Origin: Oligoflexia bacterium
GTDB taxonomy: Bacteria; Bdellovibrionota; UBA1018; CAIPTA01; JAALKR01
Length of the DNA stretch: 64,000 nucleotides
Assembly: GCA_011087955.1 (NCBI GenBank)
Contig: JAALKR010000009.1
Span: forward strand, 2,239-66,238
Direction of reading: 5' to 3'
Shown here: positions 25,625 to 57,693 of the stretch, piece after piece
Position numbering within the stretch: position 1 is the stretch's first letter
Layout of the letters: each line of letters begins with the position of its first letter
The notes under the pieces: model-generated
The model's database searches: none
What the model saw: the letters and a program-made list of their open reading frames with translations, nothing else
Told to the model about the DNA's origin: nothing
Program-made: the position numbers and the translations under genes

Positions 25625-27382
25625 CTAAACCTTCTGTTTTAAAGCAGACACTTCTTGGCGTAGTCGCTTTAGCTCGTTCAACATCTCAACACGCTCTTCA
25701 TGACTTCTCTCAGCGCGCTCTTCAGCAGCCGTTTCTGTTTCAGCCTGCATCGAGTTGACAATTACAGCGATAAATAGGTTCAGCATTACAAAAGTAGTCG
25801 ACAAGATGAAGGGTACGAAGAAAAGCCAGGCATAGGGCTTTTCTTCCATCACCGGCCGCACAATTCCCATAGACCAACTCTCTAGAGTCATAATCTGAAA
25901 TAGGCTATAGGCACTCTCACCAATCGTGCCGAACCATTGAGGAAAATCATGGCCAAACAACTTAGTCGCCATAACCGCGCCAATATAAAAAAGTATGCTC
26001 ATAATAGTGCCAACTGCACCGAGGCCAGGGATGGCTTGCAATAGACTATTCACTACTCGTTTTAATGACGGAACCACCGAAACCATACGGAGGGTACGAA
26101 GGATTCGCATCGCACGCAATACACTGAATGGACCGGATGAAGGAAATAATGCAATTCCCACCACAAGAAAATCAAAAATTCGCCAAGGGTCGGTGAAAAA
26201 ACGTAGCCGGTACACAATCATTTTTGTGAGCAATTCAATTATAAAAAATCCTAGAAAGATTTGATCTATTTGCGTAAGTAAAATTTTATTTTCGTCGCTT
26301 AGGCTGGGAATAGTCTCCAATCCCAATGTGAACGCATTCAAAATAATGACGGAAATTACGAATTTTTCAAATTTGGTTGACTCAATAAGCCTGCGTAAAT
26401 TAAAGAACAAAGTATCCACAAACATTGCTTTGGCGACATAAAAGGCGACCATTGGATTTTCATACATACGGCGAATGGAGTAGGGATGCCAATCCACACC
26501 ATAAGGAACATATACACGAATTGGATGGCCGGTATTTTTAATTTCCGAGCGTAGGTTGGGCAATACTCCGTAGAGCATTTGAAATTCGTACTTATCTTTG
26601 GGGATATTGTGTTTTGCAATAATCGATTTGGCCGCATCCACAAGAACTTTGTCATGCGTAGCAATTGCAACAAAGGCGCCTTGTTCGAAAGCTAATTCCA
26701 AGCAGTGAACATAATTATCAACGATTTCCTGGTATCCCTGATAAGCGATTTCTTCTGGCTCTTTATAGATTCCCTTACAGATACGAACATTGAGTTCATT
26801 CTTGGTATGATTTTGAATGTCGTCTAAGGTTCGTTTTAAGTATGCTTGATAGACAATACCCACCCGTGAATATTTTGCTTTCAGCTCATTATAAAGACGA
26901 ATTGTATCATCTGTGAATGTAGCGTTTTCCATGTCGATGCGTACAAAGATTTCGTGTTTGCAAGCCACTTCAATCAGTCGAGAGAAATTAGCAAAAGCCA
27001 GTTCATAGGAGACGCAAAGGCCAAGTGCTGTAGGTTTTACCGAAACACCGGAGGCGATTTGTTTGCGTATGATATCTTTCACTAATACGATATATTGGTC
27101 CGTATACGCAAGGGCAGCTCTCTCAGTATATACCGACTCACCCAGAATATCCAAGGTGCCCTTAACATTTTCGTTGTTTAGTTCCTGGGTTTTTTGCAAA
27201 GCAGTGTGGCTATCTTCACCGGCCACATATTTAAATGCGATGGGTTTAATCATAGCTAGCGGCAAGAATTCTAAGATGCGCACTAGTAATTGACTTAATT
27301 TTAGTAATCGACTTAATTTCATTGGTGAATTACCCCAAGGATTGGTATCAATATCACCCAGGTAATCGAGCGACAAGTTCAA
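25625..27382 (-). CDS. Fusion protein: proline dehydrogenase (N-terminal) joined to a NavAb/NaChBac-type voltage-gated sodium channel (C-terminal)
   Basis: One uninterrupted 585-codon ORF. Residues about 21-320 are PRODH ('FKYVAGED', 'GTLDILGE', 'VRIDMEN', 'GIVYQAYLKRT', 'RICKGIY', 'IATHD', 'FQMLYGV', 'VYVPYG', 'IRRMYENP'). Residues about 325-585 are a 6-TM channel with S4 'LRAMRILRTLRM' (nt 26057-26119), pore 'FQIMTLESWSMGIVRPVM' (filter at nt 25865-25888) and a C-terminal coiled coil 'VEMLNELKRLRQEVSALKQKV'. The track start is TTG 27382; an alternative ATG at 27322 (Met21) aligns better with PRODH N termini. Confidence 0.85.
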   Translation of the reverse strand: MNLSLDYLGDIDTNPWGNSPMKLSRLLKLSQLLVRILEFLPLAMIKPIAFKYVAGEDSHTALQKTQELNNENVKGTLDILGESVYTERAALAYTDQYIVLVKDIIRKQIASGVSVKPTALGLCVSYELAFANFSRLIEVACKHEIFVRIDMENATFTDDTIRLYNELKAKYSRVGIVYQAYLKRTLDDIQNHTKNELNVRICKGIYKEPEEIAYQGYQEIVDNYVHCLELAFEQGAFVAIATHDKVLVDAAKSIIAKHNIPKDKYEFQMLYGVLPNLRSEIKNTGHPIRVYVPYGVDWHPYSIRRMYENPMVAFYVAKAMFVDTLFFNLRRLIESTKFEKFVISVIILNAFTLGLETIPSLSDENKILLTQIDQIFLGFFIIELLTKMIVYRLRFFTDPWRIFDFLVVGIALFPSSGPFSVLRAMRILRTLRMVSVVPSLKRVVNSLLQAIPGLGAVGTIMSILFYIGAVMATKLFGHDFPQWFGTIGESAYSLFQIMTLESWSMGIVRPVMEEKPYAWLFFVPFILSTTFVMLNLFIAVIVNSMQAETETAAEERAERSHEERVEMLNELKRLRQEVSALKQKV

Positions 27383-47082: not shown

Positions 47083-47751
47083 ATGGCAAAGAAGAAAACT
47101 TCCAAATCCAAAAAAATCTTGAAAGCAAAAACTGTAGGAGTTGCAAAGAAAGCCTCCGCTGAAAAGAAAGTAGTAGCTAAAGTAGCAGGCAGAGTTGCCG
47201 CTAAAAGGGCCCTATCTAAGAAAACTGCTACCAAAAAAATTACGGTTAAGAAGGCTGCTGCCGACAAAACCATAACCAAGAAAAAAGCCAAAGCCAAAGC
47301 CAAAGCCAAAGCTAAAAAGACTACAGCAGCCCAGAAGACTAGAGCAGTGAAGGCGAAAAGTGCGGCGTTCGCTGCAGTAGAGAACCCAGAATTAGAACTT
47401 GCACCAGTTGAAACTCCCGTGGAGGCCAAGATGACAGAAAAAGTAGCGAAAAAGCCGAAGAAAGTAGCAAAAAAACGAGGCAAACGGAAAACCAAGAAGT
47501 CCTCTGTAGCGGAGCAAGAGGGATTTACTTGGCAGGGCCTGAATGATCATTTGGCAGAGGTGGAAGCAGGTTCCTATAGGATCGATGGACAGTTTGATGT
47601 CGGACAGAAAATTTCTCATAAAAAATTTGGTCTTGGGTTTGTTGTTCGCTTAGTTCCGCCAAATAAAATGGATGTCATATTTGAAAATGAGACCAGGTTG
47701 CTCATCAAAGGTCAGCAAGAAATTACTGATGAGATTTTTGGTTTAGAATAA
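47083..47751 (+). CDS. Histone H1-like Lys/Ala-rich protein with C-terminal DUF3553-like domain
   Basis: The N-terminal roughly 140 aa is almost entirely K/A/T/V ('AKKKTSKSKKILKAKTVGVAKKASAEKKVVAKVAGRVAAKR', 'KKAKAKAKAKAKK'). The C-terminal 'FDVGQKISHKKFGLGFVVRLVPPNKMDVIFENETRLL' matches the F-x-G-x-x-V-x-H-x-x-F-G-x-G pattern found at PcrA/UvrD C termini and in DUF3553. Confidence 0.7.
   Translation: MAKKKTSKSKKILKAKTVGVAKKASAEKKVVAKVAGRVAAKRALSKKTATKKITVKKAAADKTITKKKAKAKAKAKAKKTTAAQKTRAVKAKSAAFAAVENPELELAPVETPVEAKMTEKVAKKPKKVAKKRGKRKTKKSSVAEQEGFTWQGLNDHLAEVEAGSYRIDGQFDVGQKISHKKFGLGFVVRLVPPNKMDVIFENETRLLIKGQQEITDEIFGLE
47287..47316. repeat. Hexanucleotide tandem repeat (GCCAAA)4 + GCTAAA encoding (AK)n
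   Basis: Counted directly. The tract is in frame within the H1-like gene. Confidence 0.9.
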
Positions 47752-48459: not shown

Positions 48460-49620
48460 TCAGATAAAGGTCTTCTTTTTAATCTTCTCAATCATAATTT
48501 TTTCGAAGCAAAGTGGGTCTTTTGCGTCTACAGAGAAAAAGGCCTGCTGTTCACAACGAATTTTATTCTTAACTAGCCAACGCAGGATATCCGAAAGTTT
48601 TTTATTCCTTCGATCTCGAAAGAACGGATCATTAGCTAGTGCATCTTTTGCCTTTTTCAAGGCACGTAGCTCACCCTTATCCATTTTCTTTACATTGTAG
48701 CAATCTAGATCATATTTTTTAACGTCTTCCGGGAGCACACCAAGGAATCGAACTTTTGGAGCAGAGAAATCGGAATTTCGAATGAGCGAAGCGGCCGATC
48801 CAGCTTTTAATGTGCGGTAAATATTTTGCAGAGTATATGCGTCGAGGTCACCACAGAAATAAATTGGAACTTTAAGCTGCTCTTGAATCGTTTTCGTCCA
48901 ACCACGTACGGCGTTCGACGGAACACCAGCAGCCCCCATAAGGATGCAATTATGCCGCTTTGTCATGCCCATCGAAGCTAAGGTATTTGCTGTGCCTTCC
49001 GATTCAAGGATTAGGCAGAAATCAATTTTCTTCTTAGCTTTTAGCTTCAATGATTGCGGCTTGTTCTTGGGCTGGAACGGAGTTGTACCGAGGCTAGATA
49101 GATCGATCGTTGCTTTTTCTCCATCAGGAAGAATTTCTGTCACGATCAAAGCTTGCGAATAGGTTTGACCGCCGCGGTCGTTTGCATAACAATTGAGTTC
49201 CTCCCGGTACACTTCCAACATATCGCAAATGAACTCAATAATTGGATCACTTTCATTTTGGTCCTCAAAATCGATCGCACCATATTTTAAATTATCACGA
49301 ACTAAACCTTTGGCACGGTAATAGAGCTCTCTTTTTGTATTCACCGCACCAATGTCAATATTGTTCAGGAGTAGCTCCAAAAAGAAGACAACTCGGGAAA
49401 GCTTTTGCACAGAGCTTACATTTAGCTCCGTACGAATTTTTTTCTTACCTGGTGTAAGGTAGCCGATCGATGGTGAATAAATAGAATTGTCTAGCGAACA
49501 TTTAATAGCTTGTAGCTCGGGACGCTTAGCTTGTTCAAGGGTTTGTAACATATCATCGCAAAGGCTTTTGGCAATTTTAGGTATGTTTTTGGTCTGTTTA
49601 CGAATTTTAAGTAGTGTCAT
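48460..49620 (-). CDS. top6A: Type IIB DNA topoisomerase VI subunit A (Spo11/Top6A family)
   Basis: Catalytic-Tyr motif 'TKRELYYRAKG'. Toprim Glu 'FCLILESEGTANTL' and DxD 'IYFCGDLDAYTLQNIY'. Also 'GAAGVPSNAVRGW' and C-terminal 'KIRCEQQAFF'. 386 aa. ATG is preceded by AGGGGAA, 12 nt after the top6B stop. Confidence 0.88.
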   Translation of the reverse strand: MTLLKIRKQTKNIPKIAKSLCDDMLQTLEQAKRPELQAIKCSLDNSIYSPSIGYLTPGKKKIRTELNVSSVQKLSRVVFFLELLLNNIDIGAVNTKRELYYRAKGLVRDNLKYGAIDFEDQNESDPIIEFICDMLEVYREELNCYANDRGGQTYSQALIVTEILPDGEKATIDLSSLGTTPFQPKNKPQSLKLKAKKKIDFCLILESEGTANTLASMGMTKRHNCILMGAAGVPSNAVRGWTKTIQEQLKVPIYFCGDLDAYTLQNIYRTLKAGSAASLIRNSDFSAPKVRFLGVLPEDVKKYDLDCYNVKKMDKGELRALKKAKDALANDPFFRDRRNKKLSDILRWLVKNKIRCEQQAFFSVDAKDPLCFEKIMIEKIKKKTFI

Positions 49621-49632
49621 TTCTAATTTCCC

Positions 49633-51270
49633 CTAGCTATTGCGACGAGCGGCTTCTTTTGTTTTTAGTACATCAAGTTTTGTCTTTGCCTCTTCGAGTT
49701 CTTTCTTAGCGTCTCGTGTGTCACGTCCTAATAATTTGGCCAAACCCTCTTCTGCTTTTTTGGTTCGCGACTTTGGCGCTTTAGCAATACGGCCGAGAAT
49801 ATCGATTAGGATTGGACCGAATTTCTCGATATGAGCTATTTTCTTTTCAAGCTGAGATTCTTTATGTTCACGTCGAATATGGCGTGAAAGCTTTTGTCCC
49901 GCTTGCATCAACGCCCGGCGAATCTCTTCAATGAGTTCTTCCGAAGAGTCGATTGTTTCTTTGGACGCATTCTTAAATTTAATAAAGGGAGAAGTTATGG
50001 AAATAGCAAAAACGTATGGACCAAGTGGAATAGAACGCTTTGGTTGAGTAACTCCATAGGATCGCCAATTTACAGTTTCTAGTGCTTGTGTAATGGCACA
50101 GCCTCCTTTATCAAACTGAAGCGGTACTCGATTGGCAAAGCGCAAAAGTTGTACTGGTTCATCGGCGTCCCCGCGATTAATAAATCGAGCTAGAGCCACT
50201 TCCACCACGACTGGCTTGAAATCACAAATCCGAGGCTTACGCGTTACTACAGACATGAAGTCGACTTCACCCAGACGAGCAATCGACTTCGCAAGATTAG
50301 CTTCACCAATGGTAAGTACTGATTGTGTACTCGGATTCATTAAGTCCGTGCTTTGAATCGCCTGGAAGCAAGCTTTGTATTGATCCTGCGATAATTGAAT
50401 GACACGTTTCTTTAATACATTTTTAGGTAAACCAGCAGAGACAAACGCTTTGATAGTTTGGTCTGTAACGCGGGAAAAGCCTTTCTTTAGGAAGGACGAG
50501 AGCGGTGTGTTGTCATAAAGATGGGCATGGCCAATAAATTCTCCAAGCTTCATTGTGTGAGGGTGGGGGAGCGTTGCCGGTGGGATTTTTGGAATATCCG
50601 ATCGCACACGTTCGATCTTAACCCAGTCGTTTTCGAGTAATTTATAATTGATATCGAGGTGTGGGTTCACAAGAGTTGTGCCTTCAAGGTAAGTCAGCAA
50701 ACCACCGTCACCATTTAACTGAACCCGTCCATCAATGCGGAACTCTACCTTTACACCGTGGGGCTTATTCCAATCAATGGTGCTCTTCTTTTTGATGATT
50801 CCTTTATTGCCTTTGATATTAACGTTGATGAGGGCTTTAACGGCTTTACGCATTCGTTTCGTTTTGGAAGTAACCGTAACCCCTTTGGCGTTTGTAAGTT
50901 GTGCCCAAGTGACGGATGCGGAAATACCAATCCCTTGCTGGCCACGAGAACATTGTCCGCGACCAAACTTAGAGGAGGCAAGGTATTCGCCAAATACTTT
51001 CGGTAATTCTTCTAACTCGAGACCAGGGCCATTGTCTTCAATAATGAGCTCTACAAGATCTGTATTGCGCCCTGACCCCTTGCCAACTTTCTTTATTGTA
51101 ATATTAAGTTCCGGGAGAATGCCTGCTACTTCGCATGCGTCGAGCGCATTATCAACAGCTTCTTTCAATGTGGTAAGGACAGCCTTCGTCGGAGAAGAGA
51201 AGCCAACTTGCTGCAGATTTTTGGCAAAATACTCTGCCGTAGAGCTGGTAGTAATTTTAGGCTTCGTCAA
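49633..51270 (-). CDS. top6B: Type IIB DNA topoisomerase VI subunit B (GHKL ATPase + transducer)
   Basis: Bergerat-fold motifs: N box 'LKEAVDNALDA', G1 'IEDNGPGL', G2 'SRGQQGIGIS'. The 545-aa length is typical of archaeal Top6B. TTG start at 51270 is preceded by AGGGGGGA. Confidence 0.88.
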   Translation of the reverse strand: MTKPKITTSSTAEYFAKNLQQVGFSSPTKAVLTTLKEAVDNALDACEVAGILPELNITIKKVGKGSGRNTDLVELIIEDNGPGLELEELPKVFGEYLASSKFGRGQCSRGQQGIGISASVTWAQLTNAKGVTVTSKTKRMRKAVKALINVNIKGNKGIIKKKSTIDWNKPHGVKVEFRIDGRVQLNGDGGLLTYLEGTTLVNPHLDINYKLLENDWVKIERVRSDIPKIPPATLPHPHTMKLGEFIGHAHLYDNTPLSSFLKKGFSRVTDQTIKAFVSAGLPKNVLKKRVIQLSQDQYKACFQAIQSTDLMNPSTQSVLTIGEANLAKSIARLGEVDFMSVVTRKPRICDFKPVVVEVALARFINRGDADEPVQLLRFANRVPLQFDKGGCAITQALETVNWRSYGVTQPKRSIPLGPYVFAISITSPFIKFKNASKETIDSSEELIEEIRRALMQAGQKLSRHIRREHKESQLEKKIAHIEKFGPILIDILGRIAKAPKSRTKKAEEGLAKLLGRDTRDAKKELEEAKTKLDVLKTKEAARRNS

Positions 51271-51289
51271 CGAATAATCCCCCCTGTGG

Positions 51290-51306
51290 CAATAGGAGCC
51301 CTATTG
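51290..51306. promoter_or_regulatory. Perfect 7-bp inverted repeat CAATAGG-AGC-CCTATTG upstream of top6B
   Basis: Read directly. It lies 20-36 nt upstream of the top6B start on the coding strand. Function unknown. Confidence 0.25.
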
Positions 51307-51436
51307 ATTATATAATTCAAATAGTAGGGATTTTTTTTAGAGCTGACAAGGTATATGCGAATTTAGACGCGATCTGCACAGGCGGCAGCCTTATTAGGCG
51401 CCTATCGCAGACCATTCCGGCACCTGTCGTCGTAAA

Positions 51437-52108
51437 CTATTCGGCGCTTGTCGCCGATCCAGGCTTATTGCCTGCACTTGGTTTGGGCGCAAAGGTGCCG
51501 TTCTTTATGCGAGCAATTGCTCCTTGGCAGACGATCGAATTGAGGCCAATACCAATACCTGCGGATCCGGTCGCTTCATCGCCACAGATACCTTGTGCAA
51601 TTTGAAAATTACTCAACTCTGGCTCTAGAGAATCCCCAAAGGGTTTCTTTTCGCTTCGACCTAATGTTTCAAGAGCGCTCTGATCCGCTTGTTCATAGAT
51701 ACTGGAGACTACGTCAGAAAAATTTTGTGACACTAACCAGAGATTGATTAAGGAGCCAAATTTTTTCGAAAACTGATCGCAGGCATGTTTATTGTCCGGC
51801 TGATTCTCAAAGCAATAACTGTGATAGGCTTTGGCCTGGAGTGGGAGCTCTTCGAGCTCAGTAATTTTGTCAAATTCAATTTTTGTGGCATTTGGGGCGA
51901 AAGAGGCGACATATGCAGCGACTATTTTGTAATCATTTTCGGCAGCCTTTTGTTGGGCACTTACTACGCGCATAAACGCAGCCCTTTTATTGGGCTCCAT
52001 ATCTTTCGCAAATTTATTTTGAATTCCTTGTAGGACAGCGGCCTCTATATCACCGGCTGAGAAGAAAATAAGGATTAGGGCAGCGGATAGTTTTAATGCA
52101 GTATTCAT
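51437..52108 (-). CDS. Hypothetical secreted protein (about 223 aa)
   Basis: Signal peptide 'LKLSAALILIFFSAGDIEA'. ATG 52108 is preceded by AGGAG. No family recognised. Confidence 0.6.
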   Translation of the reverse strand: MNTALKLSAALILIFFSAGDIEAAVLQGIQNKFAKDMEPNKRAAFMRVVSAQQKAAENDYKIVAAYVASFAPNATKIEFDKITELEELPLQAKAYHSYCFENQPDNKHACDQFSKKFGSLINLWLVSQNFSDVVSSIYEQADQSALETLGRSEKKPFGDSLEPELSNFQIAQGICGDEATGSAGIGIGLNSIVCQGAIARIKNGTFAPKPSAGNKPGSATSAE

Positions 52109-52206
52109 ATGAACTCCTACCTGTAGCACTTATCGGATCATTCGTCCCTGTAATTTAGGCCCGAAAGGATTTAGGGGAGGAAAACTTGTAATTTCGGTTA
52201 CTTGGG

Positions 52207-53613
52207 TTACATCTGGCGCGCGCGTTTTTGCACAGCGAGAGCGGCTTCTCGCATCACTTCTGCAAGTGTTGGGTGAGCATGGAAAGAGCGGGCGATATCT
52301 TCTGAGGTCGCCGCAAATTCCATTGCTATAACAGCTTCGGCAATCATGTCTGAAGCTCTTGCTCCAAGGATGTGTACACCTAAAACTCGGTCTGTATCGG
52401 CGTCTGCAATAATTTTCACCATGCCTTGTGTGGACCCCATTGCTCTTGCGCGACCATTAGCCATAAATGGAAAAGTGCCAACGCTCAGTTTCTTCCCTGT
52501 GGCTTTCCCTTCCTCTTCCGTCATACCGACACTCGCAAGCTCGGGCCAAGTATAAATCACACTAGGAACAGTATTATAATTTACGTGCCCATGACCGTTA
52601 GCAATAATTTCTGCCACTGAAATACCTTCTTCCTCCGCCTTATGGGCGAGCATGGGGCCGCGAACTAAATCACCGATTGCATAAACATTTGGAACGTTAG
52701 TCTGGAAACGATCATTAATTTTTACAAAGCCACGCTGGTCCTTTTTGATACCCAAAGCCTCTAAACCGAGGCCTTCAGAATAGGGGCGACGCCCGATCGA
52801 AACTAAAACACGGTCAGCATTAATATTGAATTTTTCATCTTTTGAGTTGTTTACTACAGTTACGTCCACGTCCCCTGGGCCTTTTACGTTCACGCCCGTC
52901 ACGGCAGAATTTAAATGAAACTCAAAGCCTTGATTTTTTAGTACTTTCTGTAGCTCTTTACACATCTGTGTATCCATGCTGCCCGCAAGTTTATCCGTAA
53001 ACTCTACGACAGTAACTTTTGCGCCTAGACGGAGCCAAACGGAGCCAAGCTCAAGGCCAATTACCCCTCCGCCAACTACGACCATATTTTTTGGTACCTT
53101 TTCAAAGGACAGTGCTTCTGTAGAGGTCAAAACATTTGTGCCATCAGTTTTTAGGGCTGGTGACACTGTAGGTACAGATCCAGTAGCGAGCATAATATTT
53201 TTAGCCGAATATTTCGTTTTCATATCCAAGAGATCGGTGACTTCTACCTCATTGGGAGCGGTCAACACGCCAAAGCCATGGATCGAAGTGATTTTATTCT
53301 TTTTAAATAAGAAAGCGATGCCATCCGTTAAATCTTTGACGATCTTATTTTTTCGTTTCATCATTTTTGAAATATCAATCTTTAGATTTGAGACTTCAAT
53401 TCCATGATGTGAAAACCCTGATTGCGCTTCTGAGAAATGCTCGGAAGAGTCGAGCAAGGCTTTTGAAGGAATACAACCGACGTTTAGGCAAGTTCCGCCA
53501 AAAGTAGGGTTCTTCTCAACTACACCAACCTTCAAACCTAATTGGGCCGCACGAATTGCGCCCGTATAGCCGCCTGGCCCAGAGCCAATAATTAAGAGAT
53601 CAAAGTCTGCCAT
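52207..53613 (-). CDS. lpdA: Dihydrolipoyl dehydrogenase (E3)
   Basis: FAD-binding 'IIGSGPGGY', redox-active disulfide 'GGTCLNVGCIPSK', NAD site 'VVGGGVIGLE', and interface domain 'HAHPTLAE'. Confidence 0.93.
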   Translation of the reverse strand: MADFDLLIIGSGPGGYTGAIRAAQLGLKVGVVEKNPTFGGTCLNVGCIPSKALLDSSEHFSEAQSGFSHHGIEVSNLKIDISKMMKRKNKIVKDLTDGIAFLFKKNKITSIHGFGVLTAPNEVEVTDLLDMKTKYSAKNIMLATGSVPTVSPALKTDGTNVLTSTEALSFEKVPKNMVVVGGGVIGLELGSVWLRLGAKVTVVEFTDKLAGSMDTQMCKELQKVLKNQGFEFHLNSAVTGVNVKGPGDVDVTVVNNSKDEKFNINADRVLVSIGRRPYSEGLGLEALGIKKDQRGFVKINDRFQTNVPNVYAIGDLVRGPMLAHKAEEEGISVAEIIANGHGHVNYNTVPSVIYTWPELASVGMTEEEGKATGKKLSVGTFPFMANGRARAMGSTQGMVKIIADADTDRVLGVHILGARASDMIAEAVIAMEFAATSEDIARSFHAHPTLAEVMREAALAVQKRARQM

Positions 53614-53624
53614 TCTTAAACCTA

Positions 53625-54836
53625 CTAGATTTCTAAGAGGATGCGCGCCGGATCTTCGAGCGCGTTCTTAATATGAACCAAAAATTTTACTGCACCTTCG
53701 CCATCAATAATACGATGGTCATAGGAAAGTGCAATATACATTATGGGGCGAATTTCAACTTTACCGTTGACTGCCACTGGTCGATCCTCGATCTTATGCA
53801 TTCCAAGAATACCACTTTGAGGAGGATTTAAGATTGGCGTAGACATAAGAGAGCCATAAGTCCCACCGTTAGAAATTGTAAATGTGCCGCCAGACATATC
53901 GTCGATCGTTAGCTTGCCATCTCGAGCCTTAAGCGCAGCTGCTTTAATACCTTGCTCGATATCGGCGATTGACATATTTTCGGCGTTCTTTAATACAGGA
54001 ACCACGAGTCCCCGAGGGCTGCCCACTGCAATGCCGATACTGGCATAATCATGGTAGATAATTTCCTCCCCCTCAATAAAGGCGTTTACGGCCGGGTACT
54101 TTTTTAAGGCTTCGATAACGGCTTTCGTAAAGAAACCCATAAAGCCTAAATTTACACTATATTTTTCCTTGAACTTCTCTTTATATTTTGTGCGAAGGAC
54201 TTTTACTTCCGTTAAATCGACTTCATTAAAGGTCGTGAGGATGGCGGCCGTGTGTTGCGCCATTACTAGGCGTTGTGCAATTCGCTTGCGAATCGTCGAC
54301 ATTTTTTCTCGACGATCACTACCTGCACTTTGTGTGGCTGATGTTTTTGCAGCAGGTGCTTTTTCGGCTGGTTGTGTAGGTGATTTCTTTACGGCTGGAG
54401 CAGACTTTGCATGTTGCATAATATCTACTTTCGTTACACGCCCGTCCTTTCCGGTGCCGTTTATTTGGCTTGGATCCATGCTATGCTCGAGTGCTGCATG
54501 TCGAGCTGCTGGGCTCAAATCGTTCAAATCTAGTTTTTCCTCCTCACTATCAAGGGGGGGCGTAATGGGATTATCTGCGTCTGGTAGAGAAGGTGCCGAC
54601 GCGTCCGTATCAATGAACCCGATTGTCGCGCCGATAGCAACCGTAGCCCCGCCTTGCTCTTGAATCTTTAAAACTCCGTCATGCTCCGCTACAACTTCCA
54701 CATTAGCCTTGTCTGTTTCAAGGTTTAGTAAAATCTCATCTCTAGAAATGGTGTCGCCATCTCTTTTTAACCATTCTGCAATAGTTGCCTCATTAATGCT
54801 TTCACCGACGGCTGGGACTTTGATTTCTGCTTTCAT
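53625..54836 (-). CDS. sucB: Dihydrolipoyllysine-residue succinyltransferase (2-oxoglutarate dehydrogenase E2)
   Basis: Lipoyl domain '[16 protein letters not shown]', an Ala/Pro-rich linker, a peripheral subunit-binding domain, and a catalytic domain ending '[10 protein letters not shown]'. Confidence 0.92.
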
Positions 54837-54861
54837 TATTTATCTCCTTACTAAGCTTCCA

Positions 54862-57693
54862 CTATACGAAACAAGCTTTCAGTATCTCTTCTTGCTCTTG
54901 CTTGTGTAAATGAGGGTTGCCAATTGCTGGACTAGCGCGCTCATCACGGCCGATATAACGGAAGCTTAGGTTCGAGGTGCCGTTCTTATACATAAGCTCT
55001 TGTAATTTGGGGGCAATAGAGAAATAGGCTCCCATATTCTTGGGCTCTTCCTGGGCCCAAATTATTTGCTCCAATTTCGTAAAACTCTTTAAAGCTTTAG
55101 TGATCTGTGCACCAGGGAACGGATAGATTTGCTCAATGCGAATGATGGCCGTCTCCTCCTTATTGGCTGCTTTTTCTCTCTCCGCAATGAGGTCATAATA
55201 AAGCTTTCCCGTTAGGAGAACGGCACGCTTCACTTTTCGTGGACCCTCTAGTCTTGGATCCGGTAGCACTTCCTTAAATCCTGCATCCGTAAATTCTTTG
55301 TGTTTTGAAACTACGAGTGGATGTCGTAGGAGAGCTTTCGGTGACATTATTACGAGTGGCTTTCGGAACTCACGCTTTATTTGACGCCGAATTACGTGGA
55401 AAAGCTGTGCCGGAGTCGTAAGATTGCAAACCTGCATATTGTATTGAGCGCATAATTGTAAGAATCGTTCTGGTCTTGCATTGGAGTGTTCCGGGCCTTG
55501 GCCTTCATAACCATGGGGTAAGAGTAAAACTAAACCACTCATACGTTGCCACTTAGACTCTGCACTACAAAGGAACTGGTCAATGATGATTTGCGCACCA
55601 TTAGCAAAATCGCCAAATTGTGCTTCCCAAATGGTAAGCGATCGTGGGTCGATCGTGGAATTACCATATTCGAAACCAAGCACAGCGTACTCGGAAAGCG
55701 GGGAATTCCAAATCGAAAATTCCACTTTCTTAGGGTCCGGACTCAAGGTCGTAATCGGATTGTAGGTCTTACCAGTTTTGGCGTCCGTATAGGTCGCATG
55801 TCGATGGGAGAATGTTCCTCGACACACATCTTGGCCAGTAAAACGAACAGGAAAACTCTCTTGAATGAGTGAACCATAGGCCAAGAGTTCAGCCATTCCC
55901 CAGTCGATCTTTCCACCAGCATCCAGCATCGCTTTTCTTTGGCCAAGGAGTTTTTGTAATTTACGGTGTACGGTAAAAGATTCTGGCACACTTATTAATG
56001 CATTGCCGATGGCATGTAGACGCTCCATTGTAACGGCCGTTTCTACAGGTTTATCAAAATCTTCCGGCTTGCCTCGACGAAGCCCGGTCCAAACACCCTG
56101 AAGTGTATTTACCTCTGGCTTGGCTTGCTCCTGCCGGCTTGCCTCCAATCGAGCTTGTAGACGGTTCATCTCAGCGTCCCATTTTTGCTTTATCTCGGTC
56201 TCAGTTAGTATGCCCTCACTAAGCAACTGCTTGCCGTAAATCTCTTTTGCTGTTGGATGCGTGCGAATTTTTTCATACATAAGCGGTTGAGTGAAGCTTG
56301 GTTCGTCGCCTTCATTGTGGCCATGGCGGCGATAACAAACGAGGTCAATCACAATATCTTTAGCAAACATTTGGCGGAATCGGAGTGCAATATTCATGGC
56401 GCGAATAGATGCCTCGATGTCATCTCCATTCACATGAATTACTGGAGCGTCGATTTGCTTTACTACGTCTGTACAATAATAAGTTGAGCGGGCCTCTTCG
56501 GGGGCAGTTGTAAACCCAACCTGGTTATTGACTACGATATGGACGGTACCGCCGATACAGTAACCTTCGAGTTCTGAAAGTTGAAAAGTTTCAGAAACCA
56601 CGCCCTGACCAATCATGGCGGCATCGCCATGAATAATAATCGGCATTACATGATTACGCTCTTTATCCTGGCGTAGGCGTTGCTTTGCTCGAGTCATGCC
56701 CATCACGACAGGGGCAACGGCTTCCAAGTGACTGGGATTAAAGGCGAGTGAAATATGTACTTTACCATTCTCTGTTTTTTTATCTGCAGAGAATCCCATG
56801 TGGTATTTCACATCACCATCGGCAAAAAACATATTTGGATCATAGCGACCGTCAAACTCCGAGAAAACGACGTCGAGGGCTTTCCCCATAAAATTTGTTA
56901 GCACATTCACTCGACCTCGGTGAGTCATGCCGATGACGATTTCTTCTAGGCCCTCATGCAAGCCATGAGATGTAAATGTCTCTAGCATTGGAATTAGAGC
57001 ATCTGAGCCTTCGATAGAAAATCGTTTCATGCCTACGAAACGGGAAGCAAAGAATTTCTCTAAAGCCTCAGTTCGAACGAGGTCATCGTAGATTTGAATT
57101 TTTTCTTCTTTCGAAAATTTACGAAGCTCACCCTCAAATTCGCGGATTACAAAGGCTCGCATCTCTGACTTCACACCTGCAAATTCCACCGCCATCGTGC
57201 CGCAATAGGCATGCTCCAAATGATCAAGAATTTCCTTCAAGGTGGCGTTTGGCATAGCCACTTTGGAGCCAGCTTTGAATGTGGCGCCCAGGTCCGCTTC
57301 TGAGAGACCAAAATTATTTAAAGCGAGCTCTGGGATTCGGCGTCCACCACGAACAAGTGGGTCGAGGTCCGCTTGATAGTGGCCAATATCCCGGTAGGCA
57401 TTGATTAACGTCTGGGCGCTTAGCTCCTTATTGCCATTAGTGCCAGCTTCAAAAGTGTTGGGGACAGCGGTTGGTGTAGGGGCTGTGGCGGTAAAGCCCG
57501 TGGCGGTGGAGCCCATGCTCGGAATCGGGGTGCCGTTTGGCCCAACTAGGGGAGGGAGCTGGCGTCCAAATTCAACGCCTTCAAAGAAGCGCTTCCATTC
57601 CGGGTCCGCTGCTTCCGGGTTTTCCTGGAATTTTTGAAAAATTTCATCGAGATATTCAGCATTTGCACGGTTTGTGTAGCTAAGGTCGTTCAA
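54862..57693 (-). CDS. sucA: 2-oxoglutarate dehydrogenase E1 component
   Basis: 943 aa, with the N-terminal 'YLDEIFQKFQENP' typical of SucA, the ThDP-binding region 'HGDAAMIGQGVV', 'CYRRHGHNEGDEP' and 'LLPHGYEGQGPEHS'. Confidence 0.93.
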   Translation of the reverse strand: MNDLSYTNRANAEYLDEIFQKFQENPEAADPEWKRFFEGVEFGRQLPPLVGPNGTPIPSMGSTATGFTATAPTPTAVPNTFEAGTNGNKELSAQTLINAYRDIGHYQADLDPLVRGGRRIPELALNNFGLSEADLGATFKAGSKVAMPNATLKEILDHLEHAYCGTMAVEFAGVKSEMRAFVIREFEGELRKFSKEEKIQIYDDLVRTEALEKFFASRFVGMKRFSIEGSDALIPMLETFTSHGLHEGLEEIVIGMTHRGRVNVLTNFMGKALDVVFSEFDGRYDPNMFFADGDVKYHMGFSADKKTENGKVHISLAFNPSHLEAVAPVVMGMTRAKQRLRQDKERNHVMPIIIHGDAAMIGQGVVSETFQLSELEGYCIGGTVHIVVNNQVGFTTAPEEARSTYYCTDVVKQIDAPVIHVNGDDIEASIRAMNIALRFRQMFAKDIVIDLVCYRRHGHNEGDEPSFTQPLMYEKIRTHPTAKEIYGKQLLSEGILTETEIKQKWDAEMNRLQARLEASRQEQAKPEVNTLQGVWTGLRRGKPEDFDKPVETAVTMERLHAIGNALISVPESFTVHRKLQKLLGQRKAMLDAGGKIDWGMAELLAYGSLIQESFPVRFTGQDVCRGTFSHRHATYTDAKTGKTYNPITTLSPDPKKVEFSIWNSPLSEYAVLGFEYGNSTIDPRSLTIWEAQFGDFANGAQIIIDQFLCSAESKWQRMSGLVLLLPHGYEGQGPEHSNARPERFLQLCAQYNMQVCNLTTPAQLFHVIRRQIKREFRKPLVIMSPKALLRHPLVVSKHKEFTDAGFKEVLPDPRLEGPRKVKRAVLLTGKLYYDLIAEREKAANKEETAIIRIEQIYPFPGAQITKALKSFTKLEQIIWAQEEPKNMGAYFSIAPKLQELMYKNGTSNLSFRYIGRDERASPAIGNPHLHKQEQEEILKACFV

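Follow-up and report, generated by a model that had tools for sequence, protein, structure and literature searches.

An intact topoisomerase VI operon beside sucAB-lpd in a sponge-associated bacterium: a vertically inherited core operon of Bdellovibrionota encoding a probable main decatenase

How should a complete pair of archaeal-type topoisomerase VI (Topo VI) genes in a bacterial chromosome be read: as a recent import, as an addition to gyrase and topoisomerase IV (Topo IV), or as a native enzyme that stands in for Topo IV? This question is raised by the top6B-top6A genes in a 64,000-nucleotide stretch of DNA (the window) from an Oligoflexia bacterium of the Bdellovibrionota (assembly GCA_011087955.1, contig JAALKR010000009.1, positions 2,239 to 66,238 of the forward strand). 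An original prediction, made from the sequence alone, had proposed that the pair constitutes a complete Topo VI with intact catalytic signatures, representing either a horizontally acquired decatenase or a lineage-specific replacement or supplement for Topo IV. Considered together, the evidence presented here makes it highly probable that the locus encodes a functional Topo VI of A2B2 composition, belongs to a vertically inherited core operon of Bdellovibrionota, and supplies the main decatenase in the role otherwise filled by Topo IV. The elements on which the identification rests are the following.

49633-51270, minus strand: top6B, 545 amino acids (aa), TTG start; GHKL ATPase, H2TH and transducer domains and a short helical C-terminal stalk, without a low-complexity tail
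48460-49620, minus strand: top6A, 386 aa, ATG start; winged-helix/5Y-CAP domain and Toprim domain
49621-49632, minus strand: spacer between top6B and top6A, 12 nucleotides (nt), containing a Shine-Dalgarno-like motif, GGGGAA
49318-49320, minus strand: codon of the catalytic tyrosine Y101 of Top6A, which aligns with M. jannaschii Y103 and S. shibatae Y106
50701-50718, minus strand: codons of Top6B residues 185-190 (LNGDGG), which align with KGRR186-189, the sensor of the transported duplex (T-segment) in M. mazei Top6B

The two minus-strand genes, their lengths and their 12-nt separation were confirmed as originally described, and all of the motifs reported for the two proteins could be assigned to specific residues. 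In Top6B, the sequences EAVDNALDA, DNGPGL and SRGQQGIGIS begin at residues 37, 79 and 108 and provide the N box (with its Glu general base and Mg-binding Asn), the G1 motif DxGxG and the G2 motif of the GHKL ATP-binding site. The Pfam models Topo-VIb_trans (157 bits, over the full model) and HATPase_c (37 bits) both scored above their gathering thresholds, and the cutoffs of the NCBIfam models NF003218 (517 bits against 274) and TIGR01052 (387.5 bits against 380.7) were likewise exceeded. A comparison with all PDB sequences returned Topo VI subunits only, with M. mazei 2q2e_B as the best match (287 bits), followed by S. shibatae. Individual residues were examined in an alignment that combined the window proteins, PDB anchor sequences and the counterparts from related loci (80 for Top6B, 76 for Top6A). 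Eleven Top6B positions, E37, N41, D44, D79, G81, G83, G110, G113, G115, N380 and K437, are invariant in all 80 relatives and correspond, in the same order, to S. shibatae E38, N42, D45, D76, G78, G80, G106, G109, G111, N375 and K427; the last of them, the switch lysine of the transducer, also aligns with M. mazei K436. The HMMER alignment to M. mazei 2q2e_B is unbroken over residues 8-486, including the H2TH region, where the AlphaFold2 model places a helical module at residues 242-307, and the stalk interface with the gate duplex is represented by W402-R-S-Y405 (WRSY), in keeping with a motif of the form W[KR]xY throughout the clade. The model itself (predicted local distance difference test, pLDDT, 79.8; predicted template modelling score, pTM, 0.72) retrieved Topo VI-B chains as its top 16 Foldseek matches, with E-values down to 6e-47, template modelling (TM) scores of 0.65-0.69 and 491-514 columns aligned to M. 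mazei Top6B, whereas the ATPase domains of GyrB and ParE appeared only later, at an E-value of about 1e-11.

Top6A shows a comparable degree of integrity. The motifs KRELYY, ILESEG and GDLDAY start at residues 96, 204 and 257 and contribute the catalytic tyrosine of the 5Y-CAP domain and the glutamate and DxD elements of the Toprim domain. TOP6A-Spo11_Toprim (124 bits) and TP6A_N (48 bits) both exceeded their Pfam gathering scores, and the search of all PDB sequences again yielded only Topo VI matches, namely M. jannaschii 1d3y (117 bits), S. shibatae and M. mazei. R97, Y100, Y101 and E206 do not vary among the 76 relatives, nor do D258 and D260 among the 75 that cover them, with R97, Y101, E206, D258 and D260 equivalent to M. 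jannaschii R99, Y103, E197, D249 and D251. The AlphaFold2 model (pLDDT 76.1, pTM 0.73) produced just eight Foldseek matches below an E-value of 1e-3, all of them Topo VI-A chains (best E-value 1e-16). The pair is thus a genuine and intact Topo VI in which every catalytic residue checked is preserved, and the original identification is upheld by sequence, profile and fold.

Compared with the archaeal holoenzymes of M. mazei (PDB 2Q2E, 9O0G) and S. shibatae (2ZBK) and with Top6A of M. jannaschii (1D3Y), the window proteins have the same domain order and fold (TM 0.6-0.7) and share the N-box Glu and Asn, the G1 and G2 motifs, the switch lysine, the WKxY-type motif, the catalytic tyrosine and the Toprim Glu and DxD. 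They differ in that their sequence identity to archaeal Topo VI is only 26-35%, the host is bacterial, the loop KGRR of M. mazei or KAKSR of S. shibatae is replaced by LNGDGG, and Top6B lacks the Ig-like domain present at the C-terminus of its M. mazei counterpart. The two subunits have also remained together during evolution: top6A directly follows top6B in 76 of the 80 related loci (median gap 11 nt in these 76), the contig ends before any top6A could be found in the remaining four, and the pairwise distances of Top6A and Top6B are correlated (Mantel r = 0.79, with 0 of 999 permutations as high). The 12-nt spacing in the window suggests translational coupling.

The distribution of the pair points to long residence in Bdellovibrionota. 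In a scan of one genome per GTDB species, at least 547 species representatives carried a Top6B relative, and the best 80 of these (loci L001-L080, 69-73% identity), which provided the related loci used above, were nearly all labelled Bdellovibrionales, Pseudobdellovibrionaceae or Bdellovibrio and included the complete genome of Bdellovibrio sp. qaytius (L059). When 1.84 billion cluster representatives were searched with Top6B, Bdellovibrionota-like clusters matched at 55-73% identity and the next match at no more than 39%; taxonomic labels for the Top6B representatives comprised just two names, Methanolinea and Diapherotrites. In a tree inferred by maximum likelihood from 114 Top6B sequences, the window protein falls within a single Bdellovibrionota clade (Shimodaira-Hasegawa-like approximate likelihood ratio test support 100) with a long stem of 0.85 substitutions per site. 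The Topo VI of Bdellovibrio bacteriovorus HD100 (Bd2864/Bd2865) belongs to the same clade and has the same operon order, top6B then top6A, while Pseudobdellovibrionaceae genomes, including B. qaytius, encode proteins of about 70% identity in which the invariant catalytic residues and LNGDGG are likewise present. The window nevertheless derives from a deeper, sponge-associated lineage, as its 2-oxoglutarate dehydrogenase subunit SucA is only 52-61% identical to that of named Bdellovibrionota; the named relatives recovered with SucA were metagenome-assembled genomes (MAGs) of Bacteriovoracia, Bdellovibrionota, Oligoflexia and Bdellovibrionaceae at 52-56% identity, implying that the host is deep-branching within the phylum.

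The genes of the same 2-oxoglutarate dehydrogenase, with sucA three genes upstream of top6B, offer a direct comparison with housekeeping functions.

52207-57693, minus strand: sucA-sucB-lpdA, 2-oxoglutarate dehydrogenase genes directly upstream of top6BA, the conserved context in the sub-lineage of the window

The two closest SucA relatives, L091 (GC content 0.59) and L092 (a 544-kb freshwater-metagenome contig, GC 0.52), share with the window the order rplX-rpsR, sucA-sucB-(lpdA)-top6B-top6A. Between the window and L091, identity is 68% for SucA, 59% for SucB and 66% for LpdA, compared with 75% for Top6B and 73% for Top6A; between the window and L092, it is 65% for SucA and 57% for SucB, compared with 74% for Top6B and 71% for Top6A. 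The Top6 subunits (71-75%) are therefore more conserved than their neighbours (57-68%), and the two genomes that could be matched between the SucA and Top6B searches, L068 and L046, combine SucA identities of 61% and 52% with Top6B and Top6A identities of about 71-73%. Such congruence with housekeeping neighbours, together with stronger conservation, fits a vertically inherited gene under strong constraint. We conclude that Bdellovibrionota inherit top6BA vertically, as a core operon of the chromosome, following an ancient transfer from archaea that took place at the base of the lineage or close to it.

With regard to mechanism, the two proteins would act as an A2B2 heterotetramer of type IIB. 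Binding of ATP would cause the GHKL domains of Top6B to dimerise and thereby capture the T-segment, and the transducer, through its switch lysine K437, would pass the signal on to the Top6A dimer, in which Y101 and the Toprim Mg2+ site (E206, D258 and D260) would cleave and then reseal the gate duplex (G-segment), with supercoil relaxation and DNA decatenation as the expected activities. The proposed role is that of bacterial Topo IV (ParC/ParE), which uses ATP to decatenate chromosomes after replication and to relax positive supercoils. Topo IV itself belongs to type IIA: its cleavage core is unrelated, it has three gates and produces 4-nt overhangs, and it has no homology to Top6A. We infer both the enzymatic activity and the part of principal decatenase, the latter because B. 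bacteriovorus has, according to published work, gyrase and Topo VI but no ParC/ParE, and because Top6 is better conserved than the adjacent tricarboxylic acid cycle enzymes.

The rarity or novelty that the original prediction implied for Topo VI is unsupported. The Topo VI of B. bacteriovorus HD100 was named as Bd2864, with Bd2865, in a 2023 review (PMC11318664), Allen & Maxwell 2024 listed Pseudobdellovibrionaceae among 17 bacterial families with Topo VI (PMC11302465), and the genes are routinely annotated. The latter authors inferred at least two transfers of Topo VI from archaea to bacteria and described the position of B. bacteriovorus Top6B in their tree as 'anomalous' (PMC11302465), a placement that fits the long stem of the clade in the Top6B tree obtained here. 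They further reported only seven Topo VI species that also possess ParC/ParE, all of them Pseudomonadota or Terrabacteria (five and two, respectively, in their Table S2), which leaves B. bacteriovorus with gyrase and Topo VI but no Topo IV, and they rationalised Topo VI in bacteria with gyrase but no Topo IV as a specialised decatenase (PMC11302465). On these grounds, a lineage-specific stand-in for Topo IV is the reading favoured for the window operon.

Several observations weigh against this assignment. The 2023 review gives 'Top IV (Bd0005)' for HD100, which is an annotation label (PMC11318664) and conflicts with the GyrA-box classification of Allen & Maxwell (PMC11302465). A literature search for enzymatic or expression data on the window protein or any Bdellovibrionota Topo VI found none, and a search for Bd2864/Bd2865 recovered the 2023 review only and no functional study. 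The best NCBIfam model for Top6A, NF003335, scored 382 bits, under its strict equivalog cutoff of 424, a narrow miss that is typical for a divergent bacterial clade. Finally, the replacement of KGRR by the non-basic LNGDGG means that mechanistic details may differ from those of the archaeal enzyme.

The same literature bears on whether Topo VI merely supplements a full set of gyrase and Topo IV, specialised, for instance, for resolving the many chromosome copies that arise when the cell grows inside prey as a polyploid filament. Three type II enzymes occur together in some Alphaproteobacteria, Allen & Maxwell reported seven bacteria with the complete set (PMC11302465), plant Topo VI has been linked to endoreduplication (PMC11302465), and the HD100 annotation includes a 'Top IV' label (PMC11318664). 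However, the GyrA-box classification confines the three-enzyme set to Pseudomonadota and Terrabacteria and excludes B. bacteriovorus (PMC11302465), and conservation above that of SucA and LpdA better suits an essential, non-redundant enzyme. A supplementary role therefore appears unlikely, and replacement of Topo IV remains the preferred account.

A recent horizontal island, derived from an archaeon or a mobile element and inserted beside sucAB-lpd, is very improbable. Topo VI is sporadic over bacteria as a whole, the immediate flanks of the operon are orphan open reading frames (ORFs), and the operon GC of 0.430 lies slightly under the 0.454 of the rest of the window. Nevertheless, no tRNA or Rfam match was found in the window, no integrase among the flanking ORFs scanned and no repeat, in agreement with the original statement that no integrase, tRNA or flanking repeats were seen. 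Within the window, the z-scores of GC at third codon positions are -1.0 and -0.9 for the two top6 genes, and those of the distance in relative synonymous codon usage are 0.0 and -1.0. The operon is thus compositionally typical of the window. Over 64 loci with flanking GC between 34 and 58%, the GC of the operon keeps pace with that of its flanks (r = 0.97, mean difference 0.000), indicating amelioration in every host. Relatives with SucA identities of 65-68% share the synteny, with Top6 identities congruent with those of housekeeping genes, and the window sequence lies inside the clade. Recent acquisition is contradicted. Since the pair occurs throughout the phylum, forms a single clade, keeps its synteny in the closest relatives and is native in composition, the lineage-specific reading is favoured over a horizontal island.

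One further point on the side of an island is that the sister of the Bdellovibrionota Top6B clade occurs on a mobile-element-like contig. This orphan Top6B-like gene, P0009 (552 aa, 36-37% identity), was found at L081:10001-11659 (Logan SRR33677528 contig, GC 0.36) and also in L082. Its surroundings include genes for a DnaB-like helicase, UvsX/RecA, RuvC, a DEAD helicase and a TraG-like P-loop protein, and the setting looks like a phage or plasmid replication module. No Top6A was detectable on the 19.4 kb examined around it in L081; the neighbouring 391-aa gene was considered as a divergent Top6A and rejected, as it showed no similarity and no Pfam or PHROG match. Other records of Top6 pairs deserve comment. 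In L084 (IMG/VR uncultivated virus genome 3300028558_000016, a 482-kb contig), genes for Top6B (59% identity to the window) and Top6A (64%) lie side by side; catalogued as viral, this contig is probably bacterial and Bdellovibrionota-like. L085, a 34.7-kb viral contig with a GC of 0.62, has an adjacent pair at 35% and 26% identity. L057 (CALQIT020000005.1), a MAG contig labelled 'Streptomyces griseus', contains a Bdellovibrio-type top6BA (69% and 73% identity), and this record is almost certainly mislabelled or mis-binned.

It is scarcely credible that the pair is instead a generator of double-strand breaks of the Spo11/Top6BL type, a Toprim nuclease of a defence system (Wadjet JetD, for example), or a remnant of Topo VIII/mini-A. 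The Toprim fold is common to Top6A, Spo11 and JetD, and the protein lacks the KGRR loop on which strand passage depends in M. mazei. On the other hand, the N box, G1, G2, switch lysine and H2TH region are intact and invariant, and the best structural matches are Topo VI holoenzymes. Top6BL proteins lack H2TH (PMC11302465), unlike the window protein. Neither the two proteins nor their neighbours, which are sucAB-lpd and orphan ORFs in place of a JetABC/MksBEF set, gave a PADLOC match, and the defence-nuclease candidate was rejected. The window pair shares the type IIB GHKL and Toprim architecture with Topo VIII. Topo VIII is a single fused polypeptide encoded on mobile elements such as plasmids and integrated elements. 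The window has two separate genes of canonical length at a chromosomal housekeeping locus with no mobile-element genes, and they exceed the curated Topo VI-B thresholds; this candidate was rejected too. As the Topo VIII remnant and the JetD-like nuclease were the alternatives that the original prediction had named as capable of overturning it, the identification as Topo VI stands.

Least probable of all, to a vanishing degree, is that assembly or binning artificially joined archaeal-type genes to a bacterial contig: the window is metagenome-derived and the Logan assembly breaks at a (GCCAAA)n repeat near 47277-47319, but an independent Logan assembly contains an identical 19.5-kb contig spanning sucA-top6A, samples of a second study yielded contigs that cover 46.5-53.5 kb without mismatches across both the top6B/upstream and the B/A junctions, showing that the locus is no chimera, and L091 and L092 have the same gene order.

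The sensor loop and the C-terminus of Top6B distinguish the Bdellovibrionota enzyme from its archaeal counterparts. In M. mazei, the KGRR loop is a DNA-crossing sensor whose mutation abolishes strand passage (PMC5922973). The aligned residues of the window protein, LNGDGG, do not form a basic loop of the KGRR type, which is a functional motif of the archaeal enzyme and not a formal family criterion. Among the 80 relatives, the loop reads LNGDGG in 65, LNGEGG in nine and MNGDGG in four, and its net charge is -1 in 17 of 17 sampled clade members, compared with a mean of +1.83 in 96 other Top6B representatives, 79 of which have a charge of at least +1. In addition, most relatives extend Top6B by a low-complexity tail (17% Lys, 14% Ala, 12% Glu), the number of residues past position 480 ranging from 66 to 201 with a median of 134. 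The window protein, unlike most of its clade, lacks this tail: with 66 such residues and a total of 545 aa (552-681 aa in the others), it is the shortest found and retains only the helical stalk, whereas its closest relatives are tailed (629 aa in L091 and 593 aa in L092). A few other genomes have a Top6B about equally short, including that of B. qaytius (552 aa), and the Lys/Ala-rich tail is therefore dispensable.

These features raise the tentative possibility, at present more doubtful than convincing, that the Bdellovibrionota Topo VI is a mechanistic variant that senses the transported duplex without a basic KGRR loop. If so, the nearly tail-less Top6B of the window and a few relatives implies that the Lys/Ala-rich tail is not an obligatory substitute for KGRR, and compensation would come from elsewhere in the cavity or from a trans-acting factor. 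A Lys/Ala-rich H1-like protein encoded two genes away is a purely speculative candidate for such a factor; as a separate observation, its N-terminal composition resembles that of the Top6B tails of relatives, which the window's Top6B lacks. The gene for this protein (47083-47751, plus strand) contains the (GCCAAA)n repeat at 47277-47319, where the Logan assembly of the source sample splits into several short alternative contigs, which suggests repeat-length heterogeneity or assembly ambiguity. The loop and the tail-less form constitute the residual interest of the locus; both are biochemically approachable, and a naturally tail-less Top6B is a convenient minimal construct for biochemistry.

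The wider neighbourhood is more variable than the operon. Of the neighbours originally reported, the H1-like gene and the orphan secreted ORFs were correct, but sucA-sucB-lpdA, directly upstream on the same strand, had been omitted.

51437-52129, minus strand: orphan secreted ORF of 230 aa between lpdA and top6B, with a signal-peptide-like N-terminus

This ORF had no family match in Pfam, NCBIfam or PADLOC and no homologue in L091 or L092. It accounts for a gap between lpdA and top6B of 936 nt in the window compared with 132 nt in L091 (the syntenic spacer being about 130-150 nt in L091 and L092), and it either was inserted specifically in this lineage or arose de novo. Downstream, relative to L091 and L092, the window has lost the SufE-thioesterase-DUF1499 genes, whose place is taken by an orphan ORF of 191 aa together with the H1-like gene and a gliding-motility operon. 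The context of the Pseudobdellovibrionaceae copies is commonly different from sucAB-lpd-top6BA, with a small HNH-motif gene and a monothiol glutaredoxin gene upstream, an aconitase gene downstream and FKBP and BirA genes nearby, none of which occurs near the top6 genes of the window. The HNH-motif gene (about 103 aa) directly precedes top6B, in the same orientation, in 50 of 80 Pseudobdellovibrionaceae-type loci and is absent from the window, L091 and L092, and thus represents a sub-lineage neighbour rather than an obligatory partner. Conversely, none of the window's flanking genes was found near top6 in the 80 GTDB loci, and a search for housekeeping orthologues shared between the rest of the window and these loci gave paralogue-level matches only and no calibration.

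Two other genes in the window show unusual domain arrangements. SucB (53625-54836) has 403 aa, compared with 543 and 548 aa in L091 and L092, whose proteins carry about 125 extra N-terminal residues, with two Biotin_lipoyl matches in L092; the E2 component of the window genome appears to have lost one lipoyl domain. At 25625-27382 on the minus strand, a 585-aa protein combines Pro_dh (residues 61-310) with a voltage-gated-type Ion_trans domain (residues 338-552), an unusual fusion of proline dehydrogenase and ion channel.

The region preceding top6B was also inspected for regulatory elements.

51271-51436, minus strand: leader and promoter region of the operon
51279-51284, minus strand: Shine-Dalgarno motif GGGGGG before the TTG start of top6B
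51290-51306, minus strand: perfect 17-bp palindrome CAATAGGGCTCCTATTG in the top6B leader
51349-51321, minus strand: sigma-70-like site, TTGTCA-17-TACTAT

The sigma-70-like match is no better than those in shuffled sequence, and promoter and terminator scans gave counts not above shuffled sequence. The palindrome was rejected as a conserved operator, its half-site being present in one of 78 relatives and a palindrome of equal length arising in 66 of 2000 shuffles (about 3%). The runs containing the locus were solely sponge-metagenome DNA runs, with no RNA runs among them.

Bdellovibrio Topo VI having already been published, the locus adds little to existing knowledge. It confirms that the Topo VI of Bdellovibrionota is no sporadic import but a housekeeping enzyme that is conserved and natively integrated, and it adds a sponge-associated, deep-branching lineage in which a second gene context, sucAB-lpd-top6BA, is conserved. 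To our knowledge, Topo VI has not been studied experimentally in bacteria. Bdellovibrio grows as a multi-chromosome filament and offers a tractable model strain, HD100. As it reportedly lacks Topo IV, Bdellovibrio would be the obvious place to learn what a type IIB topoisomerase does in bacteria and how such an enzyme may function without the KGRR sensor.

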